Shown here: piece by piece, positions 20,044 to 44,943 of the stretch
Layout: each line of letters begins with the position of its first letter
How positions within the stretch are numbered: the stretch's first letter is position 1
From: Betaproteobacteria bacterium
GTDB taxonomy: Bacteria; Pseudomonadota; Gammaproteobacteria; Burkholderiales; SG8-41
Assembly (NCBI GenBank): GCA_016192835.1
Contig: JACPTJ010000236.1
Span: forward strand, 1-44,943
DNA length: 44,943 nt
Reading direction: 5' to 3'
Notes under the pieces: generated by a model
Database searches by the model: none
Seen by the model: only the letters and a program-made list of their open reading frames with translations
Told to the model about the DNA's origin: nothing
Translations under genes and position numbers: made by a program

Positions 20044-21021
20044 ATGAATTTATCTTTTTCCCGTTTGGTGTTGGTGGCGCTCGCCCTTGCTTGCCTTTCA
20101 ATGGCGACCACCTTTTCCTTGGCCGCTTACCCGGAACGGCCAATTCGGCTGCTCGTCGGGTATCCGCCCGGAGGGGGCGCCGACTTTACTTCTCGTTTGA
20201 TAGGCGCAGAACTCAGCAAAGAATTGGGTATGCAGGTAGTGGTGGACAATAGACCTGGCGCCGAGGGCTCTCTGGCCGCGCATATTGTGGCCCGTGCCGC
20301 CCCTGATGGTTACACGTTGCTGCTGATCCCCTTCAACCTGGCTTTGAGCCCGAGTCTGAAGAAGAACCTGCCATACGATCCTCTTAAGGATTTTGAATTC
20401 ATCACGTTGATGGCATCGGCGCCCATGGCACTAACTGTCAATCCGTCTTTGCCAGTCAAATCCGTTGCCGATCTCGTGAATCTAGCGAAGACCCGCCCGG
20501 GCGGCGTCAATTACGGCTCCAGCGGAACTGGCGGGACCTCTCACGTGTCGGCAGAGTTGTTTAGGTCTCTAGCCAAGATCAACCTCGTTCACGTCCCTTA
20601 TCGCGGCTCGGGCCCGGCGTTGCTGGCAACCATTAGCGGCGAGGTGAATATGTGCTTTGGAAGTCTGCCGCCGATTCTGACGCACATGAAGACGGGGGCG
20701 CTGCGAGTGCTGGGCGTAACCACGAGCAAGCGCGCAAAAGTGGCTCCGGATGTTCCCACGATCAGCGAAAGCGGCGTGCCGGGATACGAATTCTCGACTT
20801 GGTATGGGCTGGGTGCCCCGGCAAAGACCCCGCGCTCGATTCGGCTCATGTTACACGCGGAGATTGCCAAGGTCCTCACCATGAGTCATGTCCAGGCACG
20901 GCTTCTCAATGACGGGGCGGAACCCATTGGCAGCGGTCCGGACGAGTTTCAGAAATATTTCGCGGCTGAAGTCAACAAGTGGAAGGCCGTAGTCAAAAAC
21001 GCGGGAATAACTCCCGAATAA
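20044..21021 (+). CDS. Bug/TctC family substrate-binding protein
   Basis: It has a signal peptide, then YPERPIRLLVGYPPGGGADFTSRL, YGSSGTGGTSHV and the C-terminal AAEVNKWKAVVKNAG. Confidence 0.9.
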   Translation: MNLSFSRLVLVALALACLSMATTFSLAAYPERPIRLLVGYPPGGGADFTSRLIGAELSKELGMQVVVDNRPGAEGSLAAHIVARAAPDGYTLLLIPFNLALSPSLKKNLPYDPLKDFEFITLMASAPMALTVNPSLPVKSVADLVNLAKTRPGGVNYGSSGTGGTSHVSAELFRSLAKINLVHVPYRGSGPALLATISGEVNMCFGSLPPILTHMKTGALRVLGVTTSKRAKVAPDVPTISESGVPGYEFSTWYGLGAPAKTPRSIRLMLHAEIAKVLTMSHVQARLLNDGAEPIGSGPDEFQKYFAAEVNKWKAVVKNAGITPE

Positions 21022-21032
21022 AGAGAACATCA

Positions 21033-22889
21033 ATGGAAAAGCACCTCTACCTGGTAGGAGATGTCAGTTTTTGCGGATTCGATGACGCTAACACGCCCCT
21101 TGCTCTTGCTGCGCCGATTCTGAATAAGGCGGACGTGTTGTTTGGGAACCTGGAATGTGTCCTGTCCGCGCCTCCCGCTTTCCCCGGCATGATGATGTGC
21201 GAGGAGCCGGTGCCTCCCGGCGCTGGCGCCGAAACCAAGCTCGGTGGCAGAAAGCGAATGGGCGGCTGGGACTCTCGCTATAGTTTTCTCGACCAGGACG
21301 GGTTGTACGCCGATCCATCGCTAGGCGAGGGGCTGGTGCTGGGCGGGTTCGATGCCGTCGGATGCGCAAACAACCAGACGTATGGACCGGACCAGATAAT
21401 AAAGTCCTTGGCGAAATTGGATGCCCTCGGCATAAAGCACACCGGAGCCGGCCTAAACCGCGAAAAGGCGCGCGAACCCGCCATAGTGTGCAAGTCTGGT
21501 ATCAGCGTGGGTTTTCTTCAATACACGTCCGTATACTGGCCGAGCAATCATGAAGCTGGTCTGAACTATCCGGGCGTGGCGGTCATAAGGGGCTATACGT
21601 CGTTTCAACCAAACATTGAATACCCGATCGGCAACCGTCCGGGTGTCCCGCCGATAATTCATACGTGGGCGGACAAGCACCACCTCGAGTTCATGCAAAA
21701 GGACATCAGAAAACTGCGAACGCAGGTCGACATCCTGGTTTCCTCCCACCACTGGGGTTTTCTCGACGAGGTGTTTGCGTACCAAGAGGATATTGCCCAC
21801 GCCGCGATCGACGCCGGAGCTGATATTGTTATCGGGCACGGCCCCCATCAGCCGCTGGCGATCGAAGTGTACCGCGGTCGTCCGGTGTTTTACGGATTGG
21901 GGAATTTCTCGTTCAAAACCCGGCATTGGCGCAGCAACAAGGGCGCCATAGACGCGGGCGTATCGGGCAAGGATTCCTGGGTGGGAATGCTCGTTGACGT
22001 GACCATCGAAGACGGAAAGGTCAATAAAGTTTCATATCGGCTTGCAAAACATAACGAACGGTTCCAGACGTTGATCAGGGACCCTGGGGATGAGCCCGAG
22101 CTGATGGTAAGAATTACTTACCGGAGGATCCGCATGGACCTTCAACTCGGCAACCGCACTGCGCTCGTGACCGGCGCAAGCCGCGGCCTCGGACGCGCCA
22201 TCGCTTTCAAACTCGCCGGCGAAGGTGTCAAGACGGCAATCGTCGCGCGGCGCGGCGAGTTGCTGCGCGAGCTCGCTGCCGAAATTACATCCGCCGGCGC
22301 GCCGCCGCCGGCAATCATCGAAGCGGACCTTTCTGCGCTTGGCGCTCCTGAACAGATCACTGCCCGGGCACAGCAGGATCTCGGGCGCATCGATATGCTC
22401 GTCAACGCGGCGGGCGGCAGCCGCTCGATTCCATTCGAAGCCACGACAGAACAATGGATGGAAGGCATGACGATTAATTTTTTTCGCCTGCGCGAGCTGA
22501 CGCATGCCGTGGTGCCGGGCATGATCGCGAACCGTTGGGGGCGCATCATCAACATCACGGGGAGTTCGGAGCCGCGCGGCCTCAACGCCGCCAATTCCGC
22601 AAAAGCCGCGGCACACGTATGGGCGAAGGCTTTGTCGCGCGAAATCGCGAAACATGGCGTGACGGTCAATTGCATCAAGCCCGGCCGCATCATGAGCGAA
22701 CAGATTCTGCGCATGTACCCGACAGAAGAAAGCCGCCGCGATTTCGCCGCGCGTGAAATCCCCACGGGATGCTTTGGCAAAGCGGAAGAACTGGCGGTGC
22801 TCGCGGTATTTCTGTGTTCGCCGCTCGCAGGTTATATCACCGGAACAGTAATACCGGTTGACGGCGGTATGAGCAGGTTCGCGTTTTAA
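21033..22889 (+). CDS. CapA/PGA_cap-like metallophosphatase domain fused in frame to a short-chain dehydrogenase/reductase domain
   Basis: This is one uninterrupted frame of 618 aa. The N-terminal ~365 aa carry CapA-like blocks (GNLE, CANNQ, SHHWG, GHGPH). The C-terminal ~250 aa form an SDR (TGASRGLGRAIA, NAAG). Confidence 0.75.
   Translation: MEKHLYLVGDVSFCGFDDANTPLALAAPILNKADVLFGNLECVLSAPPAFPGMMMCEEPVPPGAGAETKLGGRKRMGGWDSRYSFLDQDGLYADPSLGEGLVLGGFDAVGCANNQTYGPDQIIKSLAKLDALGIKHTGAGLNREKAREPAIVCKSGISVGFLQYTSVYWPSNHEAGLNYPGVAVIRGYTSFQPNIEYPIGNRPGVPPIIHTWADKHHLEFMQKDIRKLRTQVDILVSSHHWGFLDEVFAYQEDIAHAAIDAGADIVIGHGPHQPLAIEVYRGRPVFYGLGNFSFKTRHWRSNKGAIDAGVSGKDSWVGMLVDVTIEDGKVNKVSYRLAKHNERFQTLIRDPGDEPELMVRITYRRIRMDLQLGNRTALVTGASRGLGRAIAFKLAGEGVKTAIVARRGELLRELAAEITSAGAPPPAIIEADLSALGAPEQITARAQQDLGRIDMLVNAAGGSRSIPFEATTEQWMEGMTINFFRLRELTHAVVPGMIANRWGRIINITGSSEPRGLNAANSAKAAAHVWAKALSREIAKHGVTVNCIKPGRIMSEQILRMYPTEESRRDFAAREIPTGCFGKAEELAVLAVFLCSPLAGYITGTVIPVDGGMSRFAF
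22123..22128 (+). promoter_or_regulatory. Internal Shine-Dalgarno GGAGGA, 5 nt upstream of ATG 22134 (start of the SDR domain)
   Basis: The sequence is ccGGAGGAtccgcATGgac. A perfect SD sits at the domain junction inside the fused ORF. Confidence 0.5.
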
Positions 22890-24231: not shown

Positions 24232-26337
24232 CTAGCGACCCAGCACCACTGCGTCCAGTGCCCAGGCACCGGCGCCGGTGAATCCCAGCCCCAGAGGGTT
24301 GATCTCCATTTCGACCAAAGAGTCACCCAGGCTCAGCGCAAGCCGGCTCAGACGGCAGATCACGTCCGCCGCGGCTGACAGATCCGCCGCGGGGCGCCCT
24401 CGAAATCCGGACAGAAGCGGGTAGCCCTGCAGTTCGCGCAGCATCTCCGTTGCTTCGTCGTGGGACAGGGGCGCAGGCCGAATAGCGAAATCCCGCAGCA
24501 CTTCGGCATAGATGCCACCCATGCCGACCAACACCACCGGCCCGAACTCCGGACTGTTCCGCACTCCCACAATCAGTTCCGCAACCGTGGGAACCATCCG
24601 CTCAACTACAACCCCTTGCACGGCTCCTTCGGGTAAGACGGCGCGCGTGCGGTCCGTCACCGCGCGGAATGCCGCCACTACCGCGTCGCGATCCGCGAGA
24701 CCGAGGGCAACGGCTCCCAGATCTGATTTGTGGTTAAGTCCCGTGGCCACCACCTTCACGGCCACCGGGTAGCCAACCCCATCCGCCACCGCTACAGCCT
24801 CCACCTCATCCCTGGCCAGACCCCCGGCAGGAGCGGGAATGCCCGCGACTGTCAGCAACGCCTTACCCTCGGGCTCAGTCAGGGCGGGCCCTGGAACCGA
24901 CAATCGGCGAATGAGGTCGTGCGGTATATGAATGGGTGGCAAAGGCGCAATTTCGGGTGCCCCCGTGGCATCGGGGCGGGAGAACACGCCCCGCATGGCT
25001 TGCGCCAGGGCTCCAGCCGAATCGAAAACCGGCACGCCCTGATCCCGCAACGGTTGGAGGTACTTGCGGGCCATGCCGTCAACGGTGTATACCGCCAGCG
25101 GCTTGTGCAACTCGCGGCAAATCTCCTGAATGACCGCCTGCTGGAGTGGCGACCGGGCAGCACTATTGGAGAGAACCACCACCATCGCTCCGACGCCCGG
25201 GTCGTTGGCCACGGCTGTCAGTGCGCCGCGGAACACAGACACATCACCTAGACCGGCGGTGGTGAGATCGAGGGGATTCTGGGCGCTTCCCCAAGCGGGG
25301 AGCAGCCCGCGCAGCAGGTCTGTGGTCTCCGGGGCAAAGGACGCCATACTTACACCCACCTCTTCCAACAAGTCGGTCACCAGAATGGCACCGCCGCCGG
25401 AGTGAGAAACCACTGCTACGCCGCTATTCGCAACACCGGAGCCGGTTCGGGATAAAACCTGGGCTGTCTCGACCAAATTGTCAAGATCGTCCACCAGTAC
25501 GACGCCAAGGCGCTGGGTCACTGCCAGAAAGGCCTGCTCATCACCCAGAATGCTCCCCGTGTGCGAGGCTGCCGCCCGCCGGCCGTTGCCAGAGCGGCCC
25601 AGCCGGCAAAGCACCACAGGAACCTTCCGCTCAGCTGCCTGCCGACAAACGGCAATAAACGATCGCGGCTGTTTAAGTCCCTCAATCACAGCGCACAGCG
25701 CCCGTACTTCCGGGTCTTGAAGCATCCATCCGAAGTACTCGCTCAGATCAATGTCAGCCTCGTTGCCACTGGCAACGGCGTATCGAAAGGCAATGCCCCG
25801 GTCGGCACCGCGGGAAAGACATGCGCTGCAAAGTGCTCCGCTCTGGGAGACCAAGCCGATGTGTCCCGCGGGAAGCGGCCATTCCATGGGGGCAGATGAT
25901 GCCGTCAGCATGATGCGATCTCTCGTATTGACTATCCCCAGGCAGTTAGGGCCGGCGATACGAACGCCTAGCTTCCGCGCCAGCGCCACCAGGTCCGCTT
26001 GGCGCCGGACGCCCTCCGATCCCGCTTCAGCAAAACCGGAGCTATAGACAATGGCTGCCTTGGCGCCCCGGCTCGCGCAGGCCTCGAGTGTGCCCAGAAC
26101 CTCGGCAGCCGGAACCGCCAGGTAGGCTGCATCGATCTGCCCGGGAATCGCTGTCACCGCAGGCCAGCACCGGACGTCGGCAATCTCCGTTGCAGTAGGG
26201 TTTACGGGATATATATTCCCTGGGTAGCCATGCCGCAGCAGGTTGGATAACGGGCGCCCCGTTACCTTGTCCAAGTTGGCCGAAGCCCCGACGATGGCTA
26301 CTGCCCTTGGTCGAAATAGTGGGTCCAGCAAATGCAT
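24232..26337 (-). CDS. ADP-forming acyl-CoA synthetase (acetate--CoA ligase family; fused CoA-binding, ligase-CoA and ATP-grasp domains)
   Basis: It has the PRAVAIVGAS CoA-binding N-terminus, the AASHTGSILG phosphohistidine loop and a C-terminal ATP-grasp region (GYPVAVKVV...). The start is ATG 26337 (MHLLDPLF). Confidence 0.85.
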   Translation of the reverse strand: MHLLDPLFRPRAVAIVGASANLDKVTGRPLSNLLRHGYPGNIYPVNPTATEIADVRCWPAVTAIPGQIDAAYLAVPAAEVLGTLEACASRGAKAAIVYSSGFAEAGSEGVRRQADLVALARKLGVRIAGPNCLGIVNTRDRIMLTASSAPMEWPLPAGHIGLVSQSGALCSACLSRGADRGIAFRYAVASGNEADIDLSEYFGWMLQDPEVRALCAVIEGLKQPRSFIAVCRQAAERKVPVVLCRLGRSGNGRRAAASHTGSILGDEQAFLAVTQRLGVVLVDDLDNLVETAQVLSRTGSGVANSGVAVVSHSGGGAILVTDLLEEVGVSMASFAPETTDLLRGLLPAWGSAQNPLDLTTAGLGDVSVFRGALTAVANDPGVGAMVVVLSNSAARSPLQQAVIQEICRELHKPLAVYTVDGMARKYLQPLRDQGVPVFDSAGALAQAMRGVFSRPDATGAPEIAPLPPIHIPHDLIRRLSVPGPALTEPEGKALLTVAGIPAPAGGLARDEVEAVAVADGVGYPVAVKVVATGLNHKSDLGAVALGLADRDAVVAAFRAVTDRTRAVLPEGAVQGVVVERMVPTVAELIVGVRNSPEFGPVVLVGMGGIYAEVLRDFAIRPAPLSHDEATEMLRELQGYPLLSGFRGRPAADLSAAADVICRLSRLALSLGDSLVEMEINPLGLGFTGAGAWALDAVVLGR

Positions 26338-26402
26338 GTCGCCGGATCTCCCGGTAATTTTTGTGCCACCACCACCGGGCCGGCGCATGGACTGCGCCTA
26401 GC

Positions 26403-27857
26403 CTAGTTAAGCCTGGCGCCCGCTCCCAAGGGAAGCCCCTTGCTGAGGGCGTAGATATCGGCGATGGTCATGTTATAGGAAGGTTTCCGCCCCTCCAGTT
26501 CACCTCTCCGGGCCACTTGCTCCTGGTGATACTCCCACACCGTGGCCGGGAGCGGGATATTTCCCGGATCCAAGTAGCGGAATGCTCCTGACCAATCTCG
26601 AACGGGCATGACCCGAGCCCGATTGTGCTGGTTGGGGGAGAACGGAATGTCAATGACGCCCGCCTTGAAGGCGGCAACCACCCCCCGCGCGAGATCGCCT
26701 TCGCCCAGTTCCAGCACCCGGTTCATCACGGCACGTACCTCACAGCGCAGCATCTCCGTTTCCGTCCGCAACTGCTCTGTTTCCGGGAAAGCCGAACATG
26801 CGGCATACTCCAGCATGGTGCGTGTCGCAACACATCCCTGAACGTTGGCCTCCCGGGTCGGCACGCCGAAGGCTTCGTCGGGTGTCTTGACGATGGTCAT
26901 GCTGGCCCCACCCCAGGCAGCGACTGCCGCCCCGGCACAAATGATGCTGTAGGCTTTGGCCTCATCCTCGGGAAAGCCGCCCATCCACTGGTGTAGCGAA
27001 GTTGTCACCACAGCGTTGGTGTACCGGAGACGGGCGGCGTACTCCTCGCCCATCTCCCGCATCACCCGCAGCGCGGCAATGTCCTGGTACAAAGACCCGT
27101 TCTGACCGTAGGCCAGCAGACAGTGGTTCGCACCTTGACCCATTTGCAAAAGCCCATCAATAACGGTGACTACAATCTGAAGGCCGGGCGGAACCACCGA
27201 ACACAGGGGAATGTAATGCTCACGACTTACAGGGCAGCCGTTGTCTTCGTAGTAGCCCGCCAAGCGATCAACGTACTGCCAGTTGTAAATGATCTCTTCC
27301 ATTGAAGTATCTTTGGAATAAGCCAGATCACCCATCGCGCCGTGCGAGTGCCCCGTGTACCCCGCTGCCAGCATGATTTCGGCACCCAGGCGAAAGTCTG
27401 GCGTGGCCGTACGCACAATGAGAGGGCGTTCCAGGGCCTCTACCACCTGTCGGCACCCTTTCACCCCGTAACTGACCGACGGAAAACCGTTAAGCATGGA
27501 ACGGCCACGCTCCAGGCTTTCCTTGCGGGCAGCTTCAGCTTCGGCAAACTTCCGGTTTCGGGTGTAGCTATCAATGGTAGATGGCAACAGGTCTGCGCTC
27601 CCGTGGTCCTGCAGAAACCGCAGCAACTCAATCTGCTCTTCTATCAAAGCGACGCCGGCACGGGGCTGGATCAGCACGCGTCCAGCCGCCCTGGCCCCGG
27701 CCAGTGCGTGAGCAGCGTTGCGCCCGGCCGGAAGTCCCCGGTGATAAGCCAGGGCCTCCTCCAAGTCCACTCCCCGGCCGGTGGGCCACTGCGCCAACAC
27801 AGCCTGGCGCTCGGCCATGAAATAGTCCAGATCCCACTTACGCTGCAAGATCTCCAT
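26403..27857 (-). CDS. Glutamate mutase E (epsilon) subunit-like protein, paralog A (closer to canonical GlmE)
   Basis: 484 aa. AAAGGAGG lies 9 nt upstream of ATG 27857. Blocks shared with GlmE are WPTG, QPRAGVAL, LPSTIDSYTR, LNGFP, VKGCR, HQWMGGFPEDEAKAY, IVKTPDEAFGVPTREAN and MPVRD. Confidence 0.85.
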   Translation of the reverse strand: MEILQRKWDLDYFMAERQAVLAQWPTGRGVDLEEALAYHRGLPAGRNAAHALAGARAAGRVLIQPRAGVALIEEQIELLRFLQDHGSADLLPSTIDSYTRNRKFAEAEAARKESLERGRSMLNGFPSVSYGVKGCRQVVEALERPLIVRTATPDFRLGAEIMLAAGYTGHSHGAMGDLAYSKDTSMEEIIYNWQYVDRLAGYYEDNGCPVSREHYIPLCSVVPPGLQIVVTVIDGLLQMGQGANHCLLAYGQNGSLYQDIAALRVMREMGEEYAARLRYTNAVVTTSLHQWMGGFPEDEAKAYSIICAGAAVAAWGGASMTIVKTPDEAFGVPTREANVQGCVATRTMLEYAACSAFPETEQLRTETEMLRCEVRAVMNRVLELGEGDLARGVVAAFKAGVIDIPFSPNQHNRARVMPVRDWSGAFRYLDPGNIPLPATVWEYHQEQVARRGELEGRKPSYNMTIADIYALSKGLPLGAGARLN

Positions 27858-27917
27858 CCCCCGCAACCTCCTTTGAGTACAGACCCCTTACCAGGGTAGT
27901 ACGTAAGTAACTAACTG

Positions 27918-29411
27918 CTAACGGCCAATCAACCGGCCTTCGGAGGCAGCAACGACGTCTGCCTGGGTCAGATCGAAGTCCAGGGGCTTGCCGGACAGGC
28001 GGGACCGGATTTCCAGCTGGCTCTGGTGGAATTTCACAGCTTCGGCCGGCAGGGGCAGATTGCCATGATCCAGGAACCGGATGGCCCCTTTCGCATCCCG
28101 GGCGGGCATCACCTTATTGGCAATGGGTAGCCAGCAGGAGAACGGGCAGTCCAGTACCCCGCTCTCAAACGCCTTGGCGGCGCCCACCACCACGTCACCG
28201 TCGCCCAGCTCGATGACCCGGTTCACAATGGCGCGTGTTTCAATCTCGATGTAGTGCATTTCCTCAGCGAGTTCGGGGGAGTCGGGAAATTTCTGGTTGC
28301 AGAGCATGGTGATTACGGCCTTCGTTGCGCGCAAGGCCTGTGCGTTGGCCTGGGCCGTCGGCAGGCCCGTGGCCTCCTGAACCGACTTCACGATGACCTG
28401 GGTGGCTCCCCCAAGAACGGCCGCCATGGAATTCCAGCAGATCAGTGCGTAGCTCCGAGCCGGGTCGTGGGGAAAGGCCCCTGTCCACTGGTAGAACGTG
28501 GTGGATACCGTCACATCCGCAAAGTCAAACCGTGCCATGTACTCGCCGGCCAGCCGTTTCAACACCCGGACACCTGCTACATCCTGGATCAGATTCCCGG
28601 TGGCGGTATACCCGGGGCTGACGAACTTGATTCCCTGGGCAGCCTGAATCAGACTGTCAATAATGATATAGGACAGGCAGATGCTGGGGGGAATGAGCGT
28701 GCCTGACAGGCCGCCGTACACTTCATGGTTGATCGGCCAACCGTGCTCCGTGTACCAGGCGCCCAGCCGGGCAACGTATTGCCAATTGCGAATCGAGTCG
28801 GCCAGCGCTACATTCTTGTGATGTGATGTCGGCATGATGATGCCGCCGCAGGGCACATCGGAGAAGCCGGAAGCCCAGGCGACCTCCATCACAAGACGGG
28901 AGTCTGCGGCGCCGGACCGCACGACAAGCGGGCGATCGACAGCCTCACGCACGCGCCGGCAACCCTGGATACCGTAGTTGGCGACCGGAAAGCCGTTGAT
29001 CATGTTGCTCCCCTCGCGCCGGCTCTCCTCGATGCCCAGTTCAGCCATTTGATAGTTATTCTCACGGGTATGGGTGTCAAGGTTGGTGGGCAGGGCATCG
29101 GCCTGTCCATCGTTTTGCACTTCCAGCAACACCTTGATCCATTCGTCAATGAGGGCGATGCCTGCTCTAGCAGCCTGTTTACGCGGTAAGTCCGACAGGC
29201 TGCCAGGCTGCATTACGGTCCGGCCCTCGGTCAGCGCCTGCTTTAGCACCCAGGCCTGATTCTGATGGGGTGGCAGCGTGCGCAAATAGGCGACGGCCTC
29301 GTCCAGGTGAACCTCCCGGCCAGTGGGCCACGTACCCAAGACTTCCCGCCGCATTGCCTGGAACTCTTCGTCCGACCAACGGTGCATTCTTAGGTCTGGC
29401 TGATCTTTCAT
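27918..29411 (-). CDS. Glutamate mutase E subunit-like protein, paralog B (divergent, with an insertion)
   Basis: 497 aa, collinear with GlmE: WPTG, QP[12-aa insert]RAGIAL, THTRE, INGFP, IQGCR, YQWTGAFPHDPARSY, IVKSVQEATGLPTAQAN and MPARD. The ATG overlaps the glmL stop (ATGA). Confidence 0.8.
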   Translation of the reverse strand: MKDQPDLRMHRWSDEEFQAMRREVLGTWPTGREVHLDEAVAYLRTLPPHQNQAWVLKQALTEGRTVMQPGSLSDLPRKQAARAGIALIDEWIKVLLEVQNDGQADALPTNLDTHTRENNYQMAELGIEESRREGSNMINGFPVANYGIQGCRRVREAVDRPLVVRSGAADSRLVMEVAWASGFSDVPCGGIIMPTSHHKNVALADSIRNWQYVARLGAWYTEHGWPINHEVYGGLSGTLIPPSICLSYIIIDSLIQAAQGIKFVSPGYTATGNLIQDVAGVRVLKRLAGEYMARFDFADVTVSTTFYQWTGAFPHDPARSYALICWNSMAAVLGGATQVIVKSVQEATGLPTAQANAQALRATKAVITMLCNQKFPDSPELAEEMHYIEIETRAIVNRVIELGDGDVVVGAAKAFESGVLDCPFSCWLPIANKVMPARDAKGAIRFLDHGNLPLPAEAVKFHQSQLEIRSRLSGKPLDFDLTQADVVAASEGRLIGR

Positions 29412-30802
29412 ATCTCCTCTAGATTCTCTCTAAGGACCGTGTACGCAACGTCCGGAAAGCGTTCAGCCAGGAGACCCATTCCGTACAGGATGTAGCGCCG
29501 GTCGATCCAGTACTGGGGATGCACGGGTTTGAGCTTCATCGGGTCTCCATGCGTGACCGACTCCAGCACCGCCTTGTATCCTTTGCCGTACGCAAAGATA
29601 CCGCCCGTTCCGACTACGGGCTTCAACTGCCGAAGGTCCTTGCCATACTGAACGAAGGTTTTCCCTTGCGCGGTCCACACTTCTTCCAGCATACCGCAAT
29701 GCCGATCGGTGGCGACAGCCACGGCCACTGCTGCCAAGGCCCTGTCAATGGCAAACTCCTGATCGGAGTCCGGCGTGGTGGCGGTATGGCGGACCCGGCG
29801 CTCCACGGCCAGCGCCAGCTCTTCGGGTGGCAGCGAAATGTCCTTGAACAGCCCGTAAGCTCTCCCGACCTCCAGAATGGTCTGGGCGTTGATGCGCAGG
29901 CCCAAGTCGCCTTCAACGGTACGCTTGACCCGTGGTTCCGGCAGGCCCTTGAGCGCGACTCCAGGCGTAGTCGGCGTCCCGACGGCTACGGTGTGAACGT
30001 CGGTGGTGGCGCCCCCCACATCCACCACCATGGTCTCGCCCAGTCCGCTTGCTCCGGGCGGACCGTCCGCCAACAGTTGGGTGGCCCGCAACACCGCCAT
30101 GGGGGTTGGCATGATGATGTCCTCAACCAGCTCGCGAGCCCGGTCTAACCCCTTGGCGTGAACGATGCGTTCAATAAACAGCTGGCGAATAAGGTCGCGG
30201 GCTGGTTCCACGTTCAAGCGATCCAATTCCGACAGCACATTCTCGGTCAGCCGGGCATCAATGCCGGCGGCGAGCAGAAGATCTACCGCTTCCGGACCTA
30301 CACTCTTGTTCCCCGCTACCACCACGGGAGTCTGCAGACCGGCCGCGGCCATGCTGCGCGCGTTTGACAATATCGTATCGGTATCGCCGCCGTCCGTCCC
30401 GCCCGCCAACAGGATCACGTCCGGGGCCAGGTTTTTCAACTCCGCGATTTCCGTCCGGCTCATCTTATAACCGAAGGCCTTGATCACCTTGGCGCCGGCC
30501 CCCAGCGCTGCCCGGCGCGCCGCCTCAACCGTGAGGGAGGGTACCAGACCCACCGCGACCATGCGCAGTCCGCCGGCAGCACTGCTGCATCCCAGCATAA
30601 GGGCCGCGGAGGGGATATCGATGCCCTGACCGCTTAATCGCCCAAGCGCCTGATGCAGCCCGATCGTAACGTCGGAATCAACTGTTGACGGGGCCTGGGC
30701 CGTGCCCAAGAGCCGGCGCCCGGCAAGGTCCACCGCAATGACTTTGGTAAAGGTGCTGCCGAAATCCACCAGGACCGCCAGCTTCACTTTGCTGGTGCTC
30801 AA
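29408..30802 (-). CDS. glmL: Glutamate mutase accessory protein GlmL/MutL-like (ASKHA-fold chaperone/reactivase)
   Basis: 464 aa with LVDFGSTFTKV, LLAGGTDGGD and VVDVGGATTDVH ATPase motifs. The TTG start at 30802 overlaps the glmS stop (TTGA). GTG 30787 is an alternative start. Confidence 0.8.
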   Translation of the reverse strand: MSTSKVKLAVLVDFGSTFTKVIAVDLAGRRLLGTAQAPSTVDSDVTIGLHQALGRLSGQGIDIPSAALMLGCSSAAGGLRMVAVGLVPSLTVEAARRAALGAGAKVIKAFGYKMSRTEIAELKNLAPDVILLAGGTDGGDTDTILSNARSMAAAGLQTPVVVAGNKSVGPEAVDLLLAAGIDARLTENVLSELDRLNVEPARDLIRQLFIERIVHAKGLDRARELVEDIIMPTPMAVLRATQLLADGPPGASGLGETMVVDVGGATTDVHTVAVGTPTTPGVALKGLPEPRVKRTVEGDLGLRINAQTILEVGRAYGLFKDISLPPEELALAVERRVRHTATTPDSDQEFAIDRALAAVAVAVATDRHCGMLEEVWTAQGKTFVQYGKDLRQLKPVVGTGGIFAYGKGYKAVLESVTHGDPMKLKPVHPQYWIDRRYILYGMGLLAERFPDVAYTVLRENLEEI

Positions 30803-31212
30803 ATGCGGAGGTCGGCGCGCAAATCCCGAATGACCTGGTCAGGCATGGTACCGGGGGGATATGCACGGTCAAATCCCATGTTCAGGAACGTTCTTTCCAC
30901 CAGTTCCCAATCCTGCCTGCCCACCATCAGGTTGCCTCCGCAATACATCAGAATGTCGTGCAAACCGGCTTCGCGGCATTTGTCCCGGAAACCCCGGCAG
31001 TCAATCTCGCCATGCCCGTACAGGGAAGACACCAGGATGGCGCGTGCGGCCGTCTCTTGAACTGCATGGATGAAGTCTGCCTGGGATACGAAGATTCCCA
31101 GGGTCACCACGTTGAACCCGGCCTCGCGCAGAGCATAGGCCAGGATTGAGTTGCCAATGATGTGCACGTCGGCTCCGAGAACCCCGGTAACGATCGATAT
31201 CTGTTCTCTCAT
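30799..31212 (-). CDS. glmS: Glutamate mutase S (sigma) subunit-like B12-binding protein
   Basis: 137 aa from ATG 31212. It has GADVHIIGN (DxHxxG base-off/His-on motif), VSSLYGHGEIDC (SxL) and YCGGNL (GG). It is collinear with clostridial MutS/GlmS. Confidence 0.85.
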   Translation of the reverse strand: MREQISIVTGVLGADVHIIGNSILAYALREAGFNVVTLGIFVSQADFIHAVQETAARAILVSSLYGHGEIDCRGFRDKCREAGLHDILMYCGGNLMVGRQDWELVERTFLNMGFDRAYPPGTMPDQVIRDLRADLRI

Positions 31213-31630
31213 GGGTGGACCACTGCATACGCTTCCTGCCATTCAACCTGAATTTCCTGAAAATCCACAGTATCGATTTCCCTTGAAAACAAGCAGAAGC
31301 CCAATCGAGGCTCATCCATCGCCGCCTCCAGCCGTCGATTATCGCTTTGCGCTTCACAATCCCATCTTGCTGGGCGCGCTTTCCAAAAAATTATTTTCCG
31401 TCGTCAACTGGCCGACGATGGGGTCAGCGCTGGTTCCTCTTGGCGCGTCAGGTCGAATACAAGTACCCTAAGCTGCCTCCCCGCTTTTCCTGAAGATTCT
31501 AGTTCGGCGGGTTGCCAACCGTCAATGGAACGAAATCGCCGGTAGTGGGTCAGTCAGAGCGGCCCAATGCCATGTAACATAGAAAATATCCGGGCCGCGC
31601 GCATCATTCGCCAACCGGAAAGGAAACCCA

Positions 31631-34397: not shown

Positions 34398-34599
34398 TTG
34401 CGTTCGCGCCATTTTGATGTAACCGGCATTGCCAATCGGCCGAGCGCAGGCGTAACATGCTTCCCGGCGCAATGCTCGGCAGCGCTGAATCAGCGCCAAA
34501 CCGTCGCCATCGGCCAGACGCGCGAAAAGAGCAGGATTGAATTCATCCGCAATTTTTGCGCCCGCCAATCTCGAATCGCCACTACCAAAGGGAGTTGGA

Positions 34600-36280
34600 A
34601 TGCCTGCTGTCAATAACGATGGATACTACGAAGTGTTCTGGCCGCGCAGTCCGCGGCAAGCTAATCTGAAGCCGGTTGCGAAACGGCTCGATACCCTGGA
34701 AGGCAAGACGGTTGCACAGCTTTGGGATTTTCTGTTCCGGGGCGACGAAGTGTTCGCACTGTTGGAAGAAGGTCTGAGAGCGCGCTATCCTGGCGTGCGT
34801 TTCGTAAGCTGGCGCGATTTCGGCAACACCCATGGTCGCGATGAACGGGAAGTACTCGCCCGGTTGCCGCAGCGCTTGAAGGAACTGGGGGTTGACGCCG
34901 TTATCTGCGGGATGGCGTGTTGAGGGAGCTGCACGCCCGCCGTGTTGCGGGCGAGTGCAGTCTGCGAGGAAGCCGGCTACCCGACGTCATCGCTCACGTG
35001 CGAAGGTTTTCTGCGGCAGGCGGTCGCGATATCCGTCGGCCTCGGCATGCCGAATATTCCGGTTGCGTTGGTACCGGGCCACGTTGGCACGCAGAGCAAG
35101 GACGAGCTACGGCGCAATATACTTGAGGTCACCGCCGAAAGGGTCATCGAGAACCTGACCCGCACGCTGGCGGCGGGCAGCGGTAACGCGGAGCCCGGAG
35201 CACGCGACATCATCTTCAAAGGCGGCTTCAAGGCGGTGAACCGCCACTTCTATGAGAAGGAGTTGAGCGACGGGCTGCCTGTCGTTCCCCCGACGCAGGA
35301 GGATGTCGAGGCCTTCCTGCGCTTCACCGACCGCGACTCCAACGAGGTGCTGGGCACCATCCTTCCCGACCAACGCGCGGCGACGATCTGGAGCATCGCG
35401 GTAAACGGTGTCATGGCCGGATGCCGCCCGGAATACATGCCGATTCTGGTCGCACTCGTCGAAGCGATGGCCGATCCCGCCTACGGCGTCGAGCACAGCG
35501 GCAATACCCCCGGGAGTGATACGCTCATTATCCTGAACGGACCCATCATCGGGCAACTGGGCTTTAACTACACGCAAGGCGCGTTGCGTGACGGATTCAT
35601 GCCGAACACTTCGATCGGGCGGTTCTGGCGGCTTTACCTGCGCAATGTAGCCGGCTTCCTGCCACGCAAGAACGACAAGGCGACTTTCGGCAATACCTGG
35701 CGGGTGGTGCTCGCGGAGAATGAAGACGTTCTGAAGAAGATCGGCTGGGAACCCAACAGCGTCGAAATGGGATTTAGCGCGGGCGAGAATACGGTGACCA
35801 TCGGGCGCTACACGGGAGGCGGCTCGTTTTCTTCCGTTTCGGGGAGTACGCCGGAGCAGATGCTGCCTTATCTTGTCGATTCGGTGCTCAAGTACCACAC
35901 GTGGCAACTCTTGTTCACTGTGAGCGTCGGCAGCGGGTCGCTACGCCCCCTGCTGGTGATAACCCCGCTCATCGCCGAGACCATTGCGAAAGCGGGGTGG
36001 TCGAAGGCGGACGTGAAGCGCTATCTCTATGAACATGCACGATTGCCGGCATGGGAGTTCGAGCGTTATCTGCGCGACTGGACTATCAGGGGTGTGTGGA
36101 ACCTCGAGGAGGAGGTACGGTTGGGGCGCATGCCTAAGATTGCGCAACAATGCGTATGTGTTTGCGCACAACGGCTTTCTCGGCTATCCGGTGGGCAAGC
36201 GCATCGAACTGCCGCGGGATTGGCAACAGAAACTGGCCGCTCTCGAGTCCTGACGCCAAGACTGTTGTTGGCGCCAGAGG

Positions 36281-36297
<17 letters not shown>
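34600..36297 (+). CDS. UGSC-type selenoprotein (GrdB-like U-x-x-C domain) fused to a ~370-aa uncharacterised domain. It contains in-frame UGA=Sec, and its 3' end is probably frameshifted.
   Basis: ORFs 34537..34923 and 34942..36297 share one frame and are separated only by TGA plus 6 sense codons. Read-through gives ...VDAVICGMAC-U-GSCTPAVL.... GGGAG lies 5 nt upstream of ATG 34600. The conserved C-terminus (KRIELPRDW) sits in the +1 frame ending at 36253. Confidence 0.7.
34921..34923 (+). other. In-frame UGA proposed to encode selenocysteine (the U of C-U-G-S-C)
   Basis: The same frame continues on both sides. The codon sits in a U-x-x-C redox-type motif, and a hairpin starts 5 nt downstream. 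Confidence 0.7.
34929..34960 (+). promoter_or_regulatory. SECIS-like recoding hairpin
   Basis: CTGCACGCCCGC (34929-34940) pairs with GCGGGC (34947-34952) and GTGCAG (34955-34960). That is 12 Watson-Crick pairs with a 2-nt GA bulge and a CGUGUU loop, with loop G/U 19-22 nt after the UGA. Confidence 0.65.
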
Positions 36298-43750: not shown

Positions 43751-44943
43751 TCAGCGCCGCGGCAATAGCCCGTCCCAGTCGCGCGGAAGAGTGACCTTGC
43801 GGCTCACCGGCGGCCCCTGCGTGTGATTGCTGCAGTAGCACTTGGACTGGTTGCGGCCGGGGTCACCGGCGATGACGATCCCGATCGACTCGGGGTTCAG
43901 GAACACGCGCACGCGCCGTTTCGGATCGTCCGACGCGCAATACTCCGGCGGCAGCAGACCTTTCGCGACCTGATCGCGTAAGCGAAAGCCCGTCAAGCCG
44001 ATATAGTAGGCGTAGCGCTCTGCGTCATCGGCTGCAATCCAGAGGTTGTCGTACAGGTACTGCCGGATGTCGGTCTTGCTCCAGCCGTGGTCGGCGAATA
44101 CTTTCGCGATGCTCGGACCCATCACGATGAGCGGATTGTTTTTCGAGTACGCCATCCCGACGGGCGACCAGTAGCCGCAGCTCTGCCCGACGACTTCGGC
44201 GAGCACGCGCGCGTGCTCCAGCGGATCATCGCTGCCGGTATAAAGCGGCGGGCTCACGCTCACCACGCTTTGCACGGTCACGATGTTCTCACCCGGCTGG
44301 AAGCCGCGATCGGCGGAGTAGGGCAGCCAGCCGACCTCGCGGCACGCCTCTTCGTTTTCGGCCAGCGCAACGAAAAAGTTCTGCGCGATGCTGCCTTTGT
44401 CGCCGGCGCCGGGCGCGAAGCGAAAACCCGCCATGTTGCGCAGGATCAAACGCAGGAAACGGCCAACCGTGCCGTTCGCGCGGCGCCCGATGCGCATCAC
44501 GCTCGCGCCGCTGTTGAAGTCGAGCTGGGTTGCGATGGGGCCGCTTACCGTGATGAGCGGCTCCCAACCGGGCGTCGAGCCCGCATCCTGCATTCTGAAC
44601 TCGGGATCGGTGACCGCTTCGACCACTGCGATGAGTAGCGGCATGTACTCAGGGCGACAGCCCGCCATGACGCCGGTCACTGCAATGTTCCACACCGTCG
44701 CCTCCCGGTTGTCGGGCGGGCAGACACCGATCACTTCATCCGGTGCGCGCCCGGTAAAGCGCAGGAAGCGCTCGACCTGCGCAAGCGTCGGCGGAAAGAC
44801 GGGCAGGCCGTCGGTCCACATCGCATCGTAGAAGTGGTTGTTGACTTCTTCGAGCGTGCCACGGAATACGATTTCCCGGGGCGCCGGCTCGCGGGCCGCG
44901 GCCTGCTTGCGCTCACTTGCGCGTGTTGATGTCAGAGCCTCGA
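43751..44943 (-). CDS. Paralog of the uncharacterised C-terminal domain of the selenoprotein gene; 5' end outside window
   Basis: The frame stays open upstream of Met 44821 to the window edge (...EALTSTRASERKQAAAREPAPREIVFRGTLEEVNNHFYDAMWTDGLPVFPPT...). It shares GVMAGCRPEYMP, GWSK.D...YLY and LPRDW blocks with 34600..36297. Confidence 0.75.
   Translation of the reverse strand, partial: EALTSTRASERKQAAAREPAPREIVFRGTLEEVNNHFYDAMWTDGLPVFPPTLAQVERFLRFTGRAPDEVIGVCPPDNREATVWNIAVTGVMAGCRPEYMPLLIAVVEAVTDPEFRMQDAGSTPGWEPLITVSGPIATQLDFNSGASVMRIGRRANGTVGRFLRLILRNMAGFRFAPGAGDKGSIAQNFFVALAENEEACREVGWLPYSADRGFQPGENIVTVQSVVSVSPPLYTGSDDPLEHARVLAEVVGQSCGYWSPVGMAYSKNNPLIVMGPSIAKVFADHGWSKTDIRQYLYDNLWIAADDAERYAYYIGLTGFRLRDQVAKGLLPPEYCASDDPKRRVRVFLNPESIGIVIAGDPGRNQSKCYCSNHTQGPPVSRKVTLPRDWDGLLPRR

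Follow-up and report, generated by a model that had tools for sequence, protein, structure and literature searches.

Does the TGA triplet at positions 34921-34923 of a Betaproteobacteria bacterium contig (GenBank assembly GCA_016192835.1, JACPTJ010000236.1) end a short gene, or is it read through as selenocysteine (Sec, U) within a longer one? A sequence-only reading of the window, by which we mean here the whole analysed stretch of 44,943 nucleotides, had joined two called open reading frames (ORFs) across this triplet into one selenoprotein of the UGSC type. Both ORFs are present as described: 34537..34923 ends at the TGA, with ATG 34600 as its realistic start, and the ORF from GTG 34942 to 36297 resumes in the same frame only six sense codons later. 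The joining is supported by a Pfam domain that spans the triplet, by homologs with Cys at the same position, and by conservation of the TGA together with a hairpin. We read 34600-36253 as one gene, encoding a two-domain selenoprotein of the known UGSC family with a Sec-decoded UGA, and present here as a copy damaged at its 3' end; we give this reading a probability of roughly 0.88. The evidence for Sec decoding at the level of the family is strong. The parts of the gene are as follows.

34590 to 34594, plus strand: Shine-Dalgarno-like GGGAG, 5 nt before the true start ATG 34600 (from the sequence)
34600 to 34920, plus strand: 107 codons that precede the Sec codon and encode the first half of the UGSC domain (Pfam, conspecific contigs)
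34630 to 35160, plus strand: UGSC domain, residues 11-187, an alpha/beta redox domain with U108 and C111 (Pfam PF24696)
34921 to 34923, plus strand: in-frame UGA, predicted selenocysteine, residue 108, within U-G-x-C (Cys alignment, TGA conservation)
34929 to 34960, plus strand: hairpin of the selenocysteine insertion sequence (SECIS) type (fold, pair counts, synonymous-site fixation, recoding energy, presence in TGA versus Cys forms)
35170 to 36140, plus strand: C-terminal domain, up to the deletion junction (invariant columns)
36140 to 36141, plus strand: junction of an 86-nt deletion (pairwise alignment to seven contigs of 99.0-99.8% identity)
36141 to 36297, plus strand: out-of-frame tail (...AQQCVCVCAQRLS...EVIEQP, then stop), a deletion artefact that overlaps a convergent ABC ATPase gene
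36143 to 36253, plus strand: out-of-frame remnant of the native C-terminus (RNNAYVFAHNGFLGYPVGKRIELPRDWQQKLAALES, then stop; translation identical to the end of homolog P0001)

Gene callers likewise start a 107-residue ORF at the ATG equivalent to 34600 in conspecific contigs, and the identical 107-residue product is encoded on at least 23 contigs. The peptide read across the UGA runs ...DAVICGMAC-U-GSCTPAVLRASAVCEEAGYP... and had been described as carrying a C-U-x-x-C or U-G-S-C redox motif. The U-G-x-C part of that description is invariant among homologs; the Cys that precedes U is not conserved.

The domain across the stop codon and its homologs

Profile searches of the read-through product were run with Cys in place of U. 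Pfam family PF24696 matches end to end across the TGA and through both ORFs at 96.2 bits (gathering threshold 25, E 3e-27), with residues 11-187 covering profile positions 1-171 of 172. U108-G-S-C111 falls at the conserved motif position, where none of 22 diverse domains departs from C/U108, G109, and C111. A check against the Pfam and NCBIfam UGSC models and against the GrdB models, proposed from sequence alone, had a divided outcome, with the Pfam UGSC model above its threshold and both NF041046 and the GrdB models below their curated cut-offs. NCBIfam NF041046, which matches all 22 UGSC domains at E <= 0.1 (best E 6e-21), gives 38.4 bits for the full protein and 41.5 for the domain alone against an equivalog cut-off of 125. 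A score so far under the cut-off marks the protein as a divergent, long-form relative of the prototype of about 150 residues.

A search of 5.8 billion proteins found thousands of relatives, of which the best 120 were examined. Nine are full-length homologs of 578-607 residues, and all five retrieved from among these (P0002, P0017, P0037, P0055, and P0109) have Cys exactly at the U position, in the context GCCGAC or GACGSC. In the remaining 111, the match is confined to the query after the TGA, which bears out the expectation that standard gene callers would split or truncate this gene. All four such entries that were retrieved (P0001, P0003, P0020, and one more) start with MLRASA, from an artificial GTG start, and are therefore shortened calls of TGA-containing genes. 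The name 'UGSC family (seleno)protein' already stands on homologs of 73-78% identity, and several entries bear it although the UGSC motif itself has been cut away. The locus is thus a clean example of a systematic annotation error, in which most public entries are split or N-terminally truncated without the motif that gives them their name.

The truncated entries, with their shared MLRASA beginning, could also be taken to favor two independent genes, in which UGA 34921 is a true stop and GTG 34942 starts a separate protein of 451/465 residues. A second point in favor is a GGGAG 13 nt before that GTG (34924-34928, directly after the UGA), so the statement that no Shine-Dalgarno sequence precedes GTG 34942 was nearly, rather than entirely, right. 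However, this GGGAG is badly spaced, and it is unconserved in the orthologs, which carry GGCAGC or GGCTCC at the same place; it may have helped gene callers to accept the false internal start. Against two genes, moreover, a single Pfam domain crosses the stop, the full-length Cys forms are single ORFs, the GTG is the Val codon of a conserved TPAVLRA peptide and lies in the hairpin loop, and the synonymous-site constraint reported below suits an RNA structure, not a start site. We consider separate genes very improbable.

In a scan of one genome per species, at least 592 related stretches were confirmed and 80 loci returned. Both codons that had been suggested for comparison, TGA and the Cys codon TGC, occur among the orthologs: in 77 alignable species loci, the codon at the Sec position is TGA in 59 and Cys (TGC or TGT) in 18. 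The TGA loci belong to Betaproteobacteria and Alphaproteobacteria, to Acidimicrobiia and other Actinomycetota, to Chloroflexota, and to Methylomirabilota, with single loci labelled Acidobacteria, Lachnospiraceae, Oscillospiraceae, and Thermodesulfobacteriota. The Cys loci come mostly from gut Bacteroidales, Akkermansia, Kiritimatiellia, Lentisphaeria, and Bacillota, in which the motif reads CGLCTPKETGS; the remainder are from Curtobacterium, Nocardioides, and a Paracoccaceae metagenome-assembled genome. The TGA is also kept in all seven contigs that are nearly identical to the window over this region. Such a distribution bears on the proposal that the gene is of the Cys type and its TGA a nonsense mutation or a sequencing error, making a pseudogene at that codon. 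This copy does have another lesion, the 86-nt deletion, but the TGA recurs in 59 species loci across phyla and in seven near-identical contigs, together with a hairpin that the Cys forms lack, and we assign the proposal almost no probability.

As a separate observation, the gut-associated Cys forms (L066-L080) make up a distinct subfamily, marked by the CGLCTPKETGS motif and by no downstream hairpin. All eight of their N-termini that were translated have a long hydrophobic leader resembling a signal or lipoprotein sequence, and on this basis these proteins may be exported.

The family itself is not new. A 'UGSC-containing protein' appears as a selenoprotein of unknown function in a 2007 catalogue (PMC1976440), and in the Global Ocean Sampling metagenomes UGSC ranked among the most abundant selenoprotein families, with 255 Sec and 21 Cys sequences (PMC2398784). 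In aquatic metagenomes, few predicted selenoproteins are more abundant than the UGSC proteins. Reviews of 2022 and 2026 include the family, with NF041046 as its model, and its function is still given as unknown (PMC2398784, PMC13188914). Our protein shares with the catalogued family the full-length domain, the U-G-S-C motif, and the occurrence of Sec/Cys pairs in which Sec forms predominate. A 'UGSC/Unknown_1 fusion' was described already in 2008 (PMC2398784). Unknown_1 may be the C-terminal domain (C-domain) of our protein, since the description given for it fits: the domain is conserved, and in some organisms it stands alone. With the family catalogued since 2007-2008 and modeled in both Pfam and NCBIfam, the locus represents no new kind of element. 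What is added here is synonymous-site evidence for selection on the hairpin in TGA forms only, the 86-nt lesion, several functional leads, and a probable second paralog.

The hairpin downstream of the UGA

RNAfold returns exactly the hairpin that had been proposed from the sequence alone: 34929-34940 pair with 34947-34952 and 34955-34960, all 12 pairs being Watson-Crick, with a 2-nt bulge at 34953-34954 and an apical loop CGUGUU at 34941-34946. The conserved core, 34935-34952, reads GCCCGC-CGUGUU-GCGGGC. The geometry claimed for it holds as well, since the stem begins 5 nt after the UGA and loop G34942 stands 21 nt from that codon's U. Accepted hallmarks of the bacterial SECIS are the hairpin's place directly downstream of the UGA and a conserved guanosine in the apical loop (PMC2398784). 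Like the E. coli fdhF element, this one sits directly 3' of the UGA inside the coding sequence and has a loop G (G-U) about 20 nt away, a distance judged by the spacing window of the bSECISearch model; it differs in having a family-specific sequence that also encodes PAVLRA, and no evident bulged U such as U17 of fdhF. From what is known of SelB biology, the hairpin would serve as a bacterial SECIS and bring SelB-GTP-Sec-tRNA(Sec) to the ribosome. Rfam, searched over the whole window at gathering thresholds, gave no match.

Several observations weigh against the selenoprotein reading. In dinucleotide shuffles the hairpin is not significant (z -1.43; 22 of 200 fold as well); it is unremarkable for GC-rich DNA, and the case for it therefore rests on comparative evidence. 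Covariation is weak, with 12 cells changed on both sides, a number reached by 36 of 500 shuffles, and RNAalifold on 60 sequences keeps only four pairs with almost no covariation term, both because the core stem is nearly invariant. The loci compared are related by phylogeny, and counts over them are not independent. The 45-kb window holds no selA, selB, or selD among its ORFs and no tRNA-Sec or other tRNA gene, and it also lacks the thioredoxin reductase (TrxR)-like gene that adjoins many relatives. In the literature found, selenium incorporation is predicted only, with no experimental case for any UGSC member; the biochemical function proposed below is drawn only from context; and this copy, owing to its 86-nt deletion, may make no functional protein. 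Finally, the stem doubles as codons for a conserved peptide. Because the stem encodes TPAVLRA, we examined the synonymous sites, with expected codon counts taken from the codon usage of the same genes.

In the TGA forms the codons of the stem are near fixation: Pro is CCC in 51 of 56 (18 expected), Ala is GCC in 52 of 59 (25), Val is GTG in 50 of 54 (28), Leu is TTG in 36 of 41 (3.8), and Arg is CGG in 55 of 59 (14). The Ala codon that comes next has its third base in the predicted bulge and varies freely (16/18/13/1). Eight Cys forms that encode TPAV(L/I/V)RA use mixed codons (CCC 3/8, CGG 1/8, TTG 0/3). As judged from these codon choices, the hairpin core appears to be under selection at the RNA level only in the TGA forms. 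Folding energies point the same way: the 45-nt segment from the window has -25.0 kcal/mol against -16.8 +/- 3.4 for synonymous recodings, only 0.7% of which are as stable, and in this comparison with recodings the TGA loci, taken as a group, differ from the Cys loci (Mann-Whitney p = 9e-5).

The earlier description of a 12-bp stem is correct for this copy, and only its upper half extends to the orthologs. The upper 6 bp (34935-34940 with 34947-34952) pair in 78-98% of 60 TGA sequences and are almost invariant, as against 35-87% for the lower 6 bp; the closing pair changes from G-C to A-U three times and from G-C to G-U three times. The hairpin is thus conserved along with the TGA, as had been anticipated, although classical covariation is weak. 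We scored as positioned any hairpin of at least 5 bp, with at least four G-C pairs and a loop centered 16-30 nt from the UGA. A positioned, GC-rich hairpin was found in 54 of 60 TGA sequences and in 4 of 23 Cys sequences. In 41 TGA sequences the distance from the U of the UGA to the start of the loop is exactly 20 nt, and in 39 the loop reads CGUGNN. Divergent TGA members have a hairpin at the same place with another sequence, over TAASSRA in L046 and L048 and over PAA(V/A)RP in L057, L062, and L063. The combination of hairpin and synonymous-site signature could be used for automatic repair of the truncated entries. In three conspecific contigs (L087, L089, and L092), Cys111 is encoded by TGT instead of TGC, at the equivalent of window position 34932; in the lower stem a C-G pair thereby becomes a U-G wobble, and pairing is kept.

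Selenocysteine machinery and the damaged 3' end

Genes for Sec decoding stand beside TGA orthologs at the following places in related genomes.

L039, 1233-5798: by curated HMMs, selA at 585 bits (cut-off 268) and selB at 455 (cut-off 242), running divergently right beside the gene in a set that also holds a TrxR-like gene and tRNA-Sec
L026, 11082-12611: selA, also by curated HMM, beside the TGA ortholog
L049, 290-1834: selA gene-cluster member, assigned by clustering, directly upstream of the ortholog

In both L026 and L039, ARAGORN places a tRNA-Sec gene within a few kb of the TGA ortholog. These neighbors speak against a genome-wide reassignment of UGA, to Trp or Gly for instance, without any Sec machinery. 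Nothing recommends such a reassignment beyond the in-frame TGA itself. The homologs' aligned residue is Cys, and TGA is the commonest ordinary stop in the window, ending 18 of 29 Pfam-supported ORFs at the expected place, which excludes a reassigned code; we give this alternative a negligible share of the probability. On the selenoprotein reading, UGA 34921-34923 would be decoded as selenocysteine.

The read-through product had been written as running to the end of the downstream ORF. Joining at the UGA stands, and the C-terminus does not, since ORF 34942..36297 has lost its frame over the last 52 codons. Independent samples yielded seven contigs (L001 and L087-L092) with identical synteny and 99.0-99.8% identity over 3-6 kb, and all seven contain 86 nt that are missing from the window, whose product departs from the 98%-identical P0001 after ...RLGRMPKI. 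The deletion takes out FHESGDPNRMVPIVWKPEDYMIAVTGDP, including nearly invariant columns of the family, and shifts the frame; about 65 conserved C-terminal residues are lost or frameshifted. Neither the product as first written nor the end of its ORF is therefore native.

The choice for this copy lies between an inactivated allele and an assembly error. On the first view, the family is one of genuine selenoproteins, but the deletion is real and the window would hold a dead allele that makes no functional protein. The seven near-identical contigs without the deletion, the loss of nearly invariant residues with the shift of frame, and a junction microhomology of merely about 1 nt are in keeping with a dead allele. 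On the other side, the flanks are intact and 99.8% identical to L087, so that a private gap could equally be an error of assembly or consensus. The junction has no exact match in the public metagenome contigs searched, which leaves it without independent support, and the frameshifted product has no record in the collections searched. We put the chance of a dead allele somewhat below one half.

The C-terminal domain, redox relatives, and gene neighborhood

The C-domain of about 390 residues (residues ~190-580) has no Pfam or NCBIfam match. Its Cys275 (codon 35422-35424) is invariant, and it has the motifs SDGLP(V/I)VPPT, NGVMAGC, HSGNTPG, and GNTWRV. In an exhaustive search its family comprises 3,858 representative clusters at E <= 1e-3. 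A standalone version, 30% identical (E 3e-49), is often encoded directly downstream of the fusion and followed by a TrxR-like gene; the domain also occurs in tandem, and once (P0252) fused to the catalytic beta chain of ferredoxin:thioredoxin reductase (FeThRed_B). Among P0252, P0202, P0206, and P0166 are proteins of 700-1250 residues with two C-domain copies around a UGSC domain, and P0202 has in addition a copper amine oxidase N-terminal domain. The window encodes a second member of the family, which its edge cuts:

43751 to 44941, minus strand: second C-domain family member, cut by the window edge (tblastn E 3e-37, 29% over 407 residues)

This second member has the motifs TDGLPVFPPT and TGVMAGCRPEYMP, and no Pfam match. 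A linker and an end-of-UGSC signature ('...ALT') upstream of its C-domain make it probable, on sequence grounds, that 43751-44941 belongs to a second UGSC fusion whose UGSC/Sec part lies past the window end.

In the PDB, sequence searches with one profile for the whole protein and another for the UGSC domain returned nothing credible, the best being a hydantoin racemase at E 0.025. An AlphaFold2 model of the full-length Cys homolog P0002 (pLDDT 84.5, pTM 0.86) has an N-terminal domain of alternating beta-alpha units. In the model, strand 97-103 is followed by the loop that carries the U-equivalent residue, and helix 108-121 has the second Cys at its N-terminus, a predicted arrangement typical of the geometry of redox-active pairs. 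The 2008 catalogue proposed a 'likely Trx-like fold' (PMC2398784), whereas the model suggests a beta-alpha-beta-alpha-beta-alpha-beta-alpha layout. Foldseek found no match at E <= 1e-3 for the whole model against the PDB, and no recognizable solved relative of the C-domain; its weak matches (E >= 2e-3) are to alpha/beta folds of the flavodoxin, B12-binding, and periplasmic-binding types, none of them thioredoxin.

The segment around U had been likened to glycine reductase selenoprotein B. Homology to GrdB does show, at a remote, sub-threshold level, and membership in that family does not follow. Among 22 diverse UGSC domains, 15 match PrdB (best E 2e-5) and 10 match each of the GrdB, GrdF, GrdH, and 'various_sel_PB' models. 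Residues 82-134 of the window protein align with 123-174 of the 238 positions of PrdB, and residues 88-177 with 327-415 of the 431 of GrdB, the Sec region being covered. The curated cut-offs (TIGR01917, TIGR01918, TIGR04483) are far from reached, with 18.2 against 300 bits for PrdB and 11.7 against 602 for GrdB. GrdB, GrdF, GrdH, and PrdB share with the UGSC proteins a U-x-x-C motif and a thioredoxin-reductase-type partner encoded nearby. Unlike the Stickland fermenters, carriers of UGSC proteins are mostly aerobic or facultative Proteobacteria and Actinomycetota, and the attached C-domain is unrelated to known domains of Grd and Prd subunits. No grdA, grdE, prdA, or grdCD partner was found among the window ORFs by Pfam or in the recurrent neighbor clusters.

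The partner that does recur is a TrxB paralog of about 305 residues, which scores 213-246 bits on TRX_reduct (cut-off 343). It adjoins the gene or lies near it in 18 of 83 loci, as a rule one or two genes away on the same strand. On a rough estimate, fewer than one TrxR-like gene would fall by chance into 83 windows of 12 kb. Among the loci with such a neighbor are all five of the Cys-form metagenome loci, and in six loci the order is fusion, standalone C-domain paralog, TrxR-like gene. The loci listed with such a gene are:

L082-L086, L008, L012, L013, L016-L018, L020, L022, L023, L028, L032, L038, L039, and L064: TrxR-like gene

Sec108 and Cys111, at a strand-to-helix junction, would most likely form a redox-active selenenylsulfide, and the C-domain of about 390 residues, with its invariant Cys, may be the catalytic or substrate-binding part. 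In many genomes, the adjoining dedicated TrxR-like flavoprotein would probably re-reduce the redox center. We suggest as a hypothesis a catalytic C-domain with a built-in Sec/Cys module, recycled by the flavoprotein, acting in organic-acid or acyl-CoA metabolism. AhpF/AhpC, Prx-Grx, and Msr-Trx fusions follow an analogous logic, in which a Cys catalytic domain has its own dithiol or selenol-thiol reductant and a TrxR-like flavoprotein; this is analogy only, as the C-domain has no sequence or structural homology to these enzymes. Going further, and with distinctly less than even confidence, we entertain the possibility that long UGSC proteins are the Sec core of an NAD(P)H-dependent reductase system for the catabolism of organic acids or acyl-CoA, an aerobic-lineage cousin of the Stickland reductases. 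In such a system a GrdB/PrdB-like Sec domain would be combined with a new catalytic C-domain and recycled by a dedicated TrxB paralog, and the system would be widespread in Proteobacteria, Actinomycetota, and Chloroflexota of soil and groundwater. Leads for work in cultured carriers such as Vineibacter terrae are the TrxR-like neighbor, the GrdB/PrdB link, the standalone C-domain family, and, in some genomes, the linkage to selA/selB/selC.

The neighbors of the gene in the window are an acyl-CoA dehydrogenase, PrpD/MmgE, a glutamate-mutase-like cluster, an ADP-forming acyl-CoA synthetase, and many TctC receptors, and the window looks like a catabolic island for organic acids. The glutamate-mutase-like cluster (24232-31242, minus strand) has two MutE-type paralogs, MutL, and a small B12-binding subunit, and lies beside the ADP-forming acyl-CoA synthetase. 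The window also encodes three members of the phosphoenolpyruvate mutase/isocitrate lyase family, two PrpD/MmgE proteins, hydantoinase A/B, six TctC receptors, and two AtuA-family proteins with a DUF4387 protein. Other pairs of same-frame ORFs split by TGA in the window were considered and rejected as ordinary neighboring genes, each with its own domains. A 636-residue ORF at 20979-22889 (plus strand) combines PGA_cap, a capsule-synthesis or metallophosphatase-like domain, with a complete short-chain dehydrogenase domain; it may represent an unusual fusion, or else two genes run together in a single frame.

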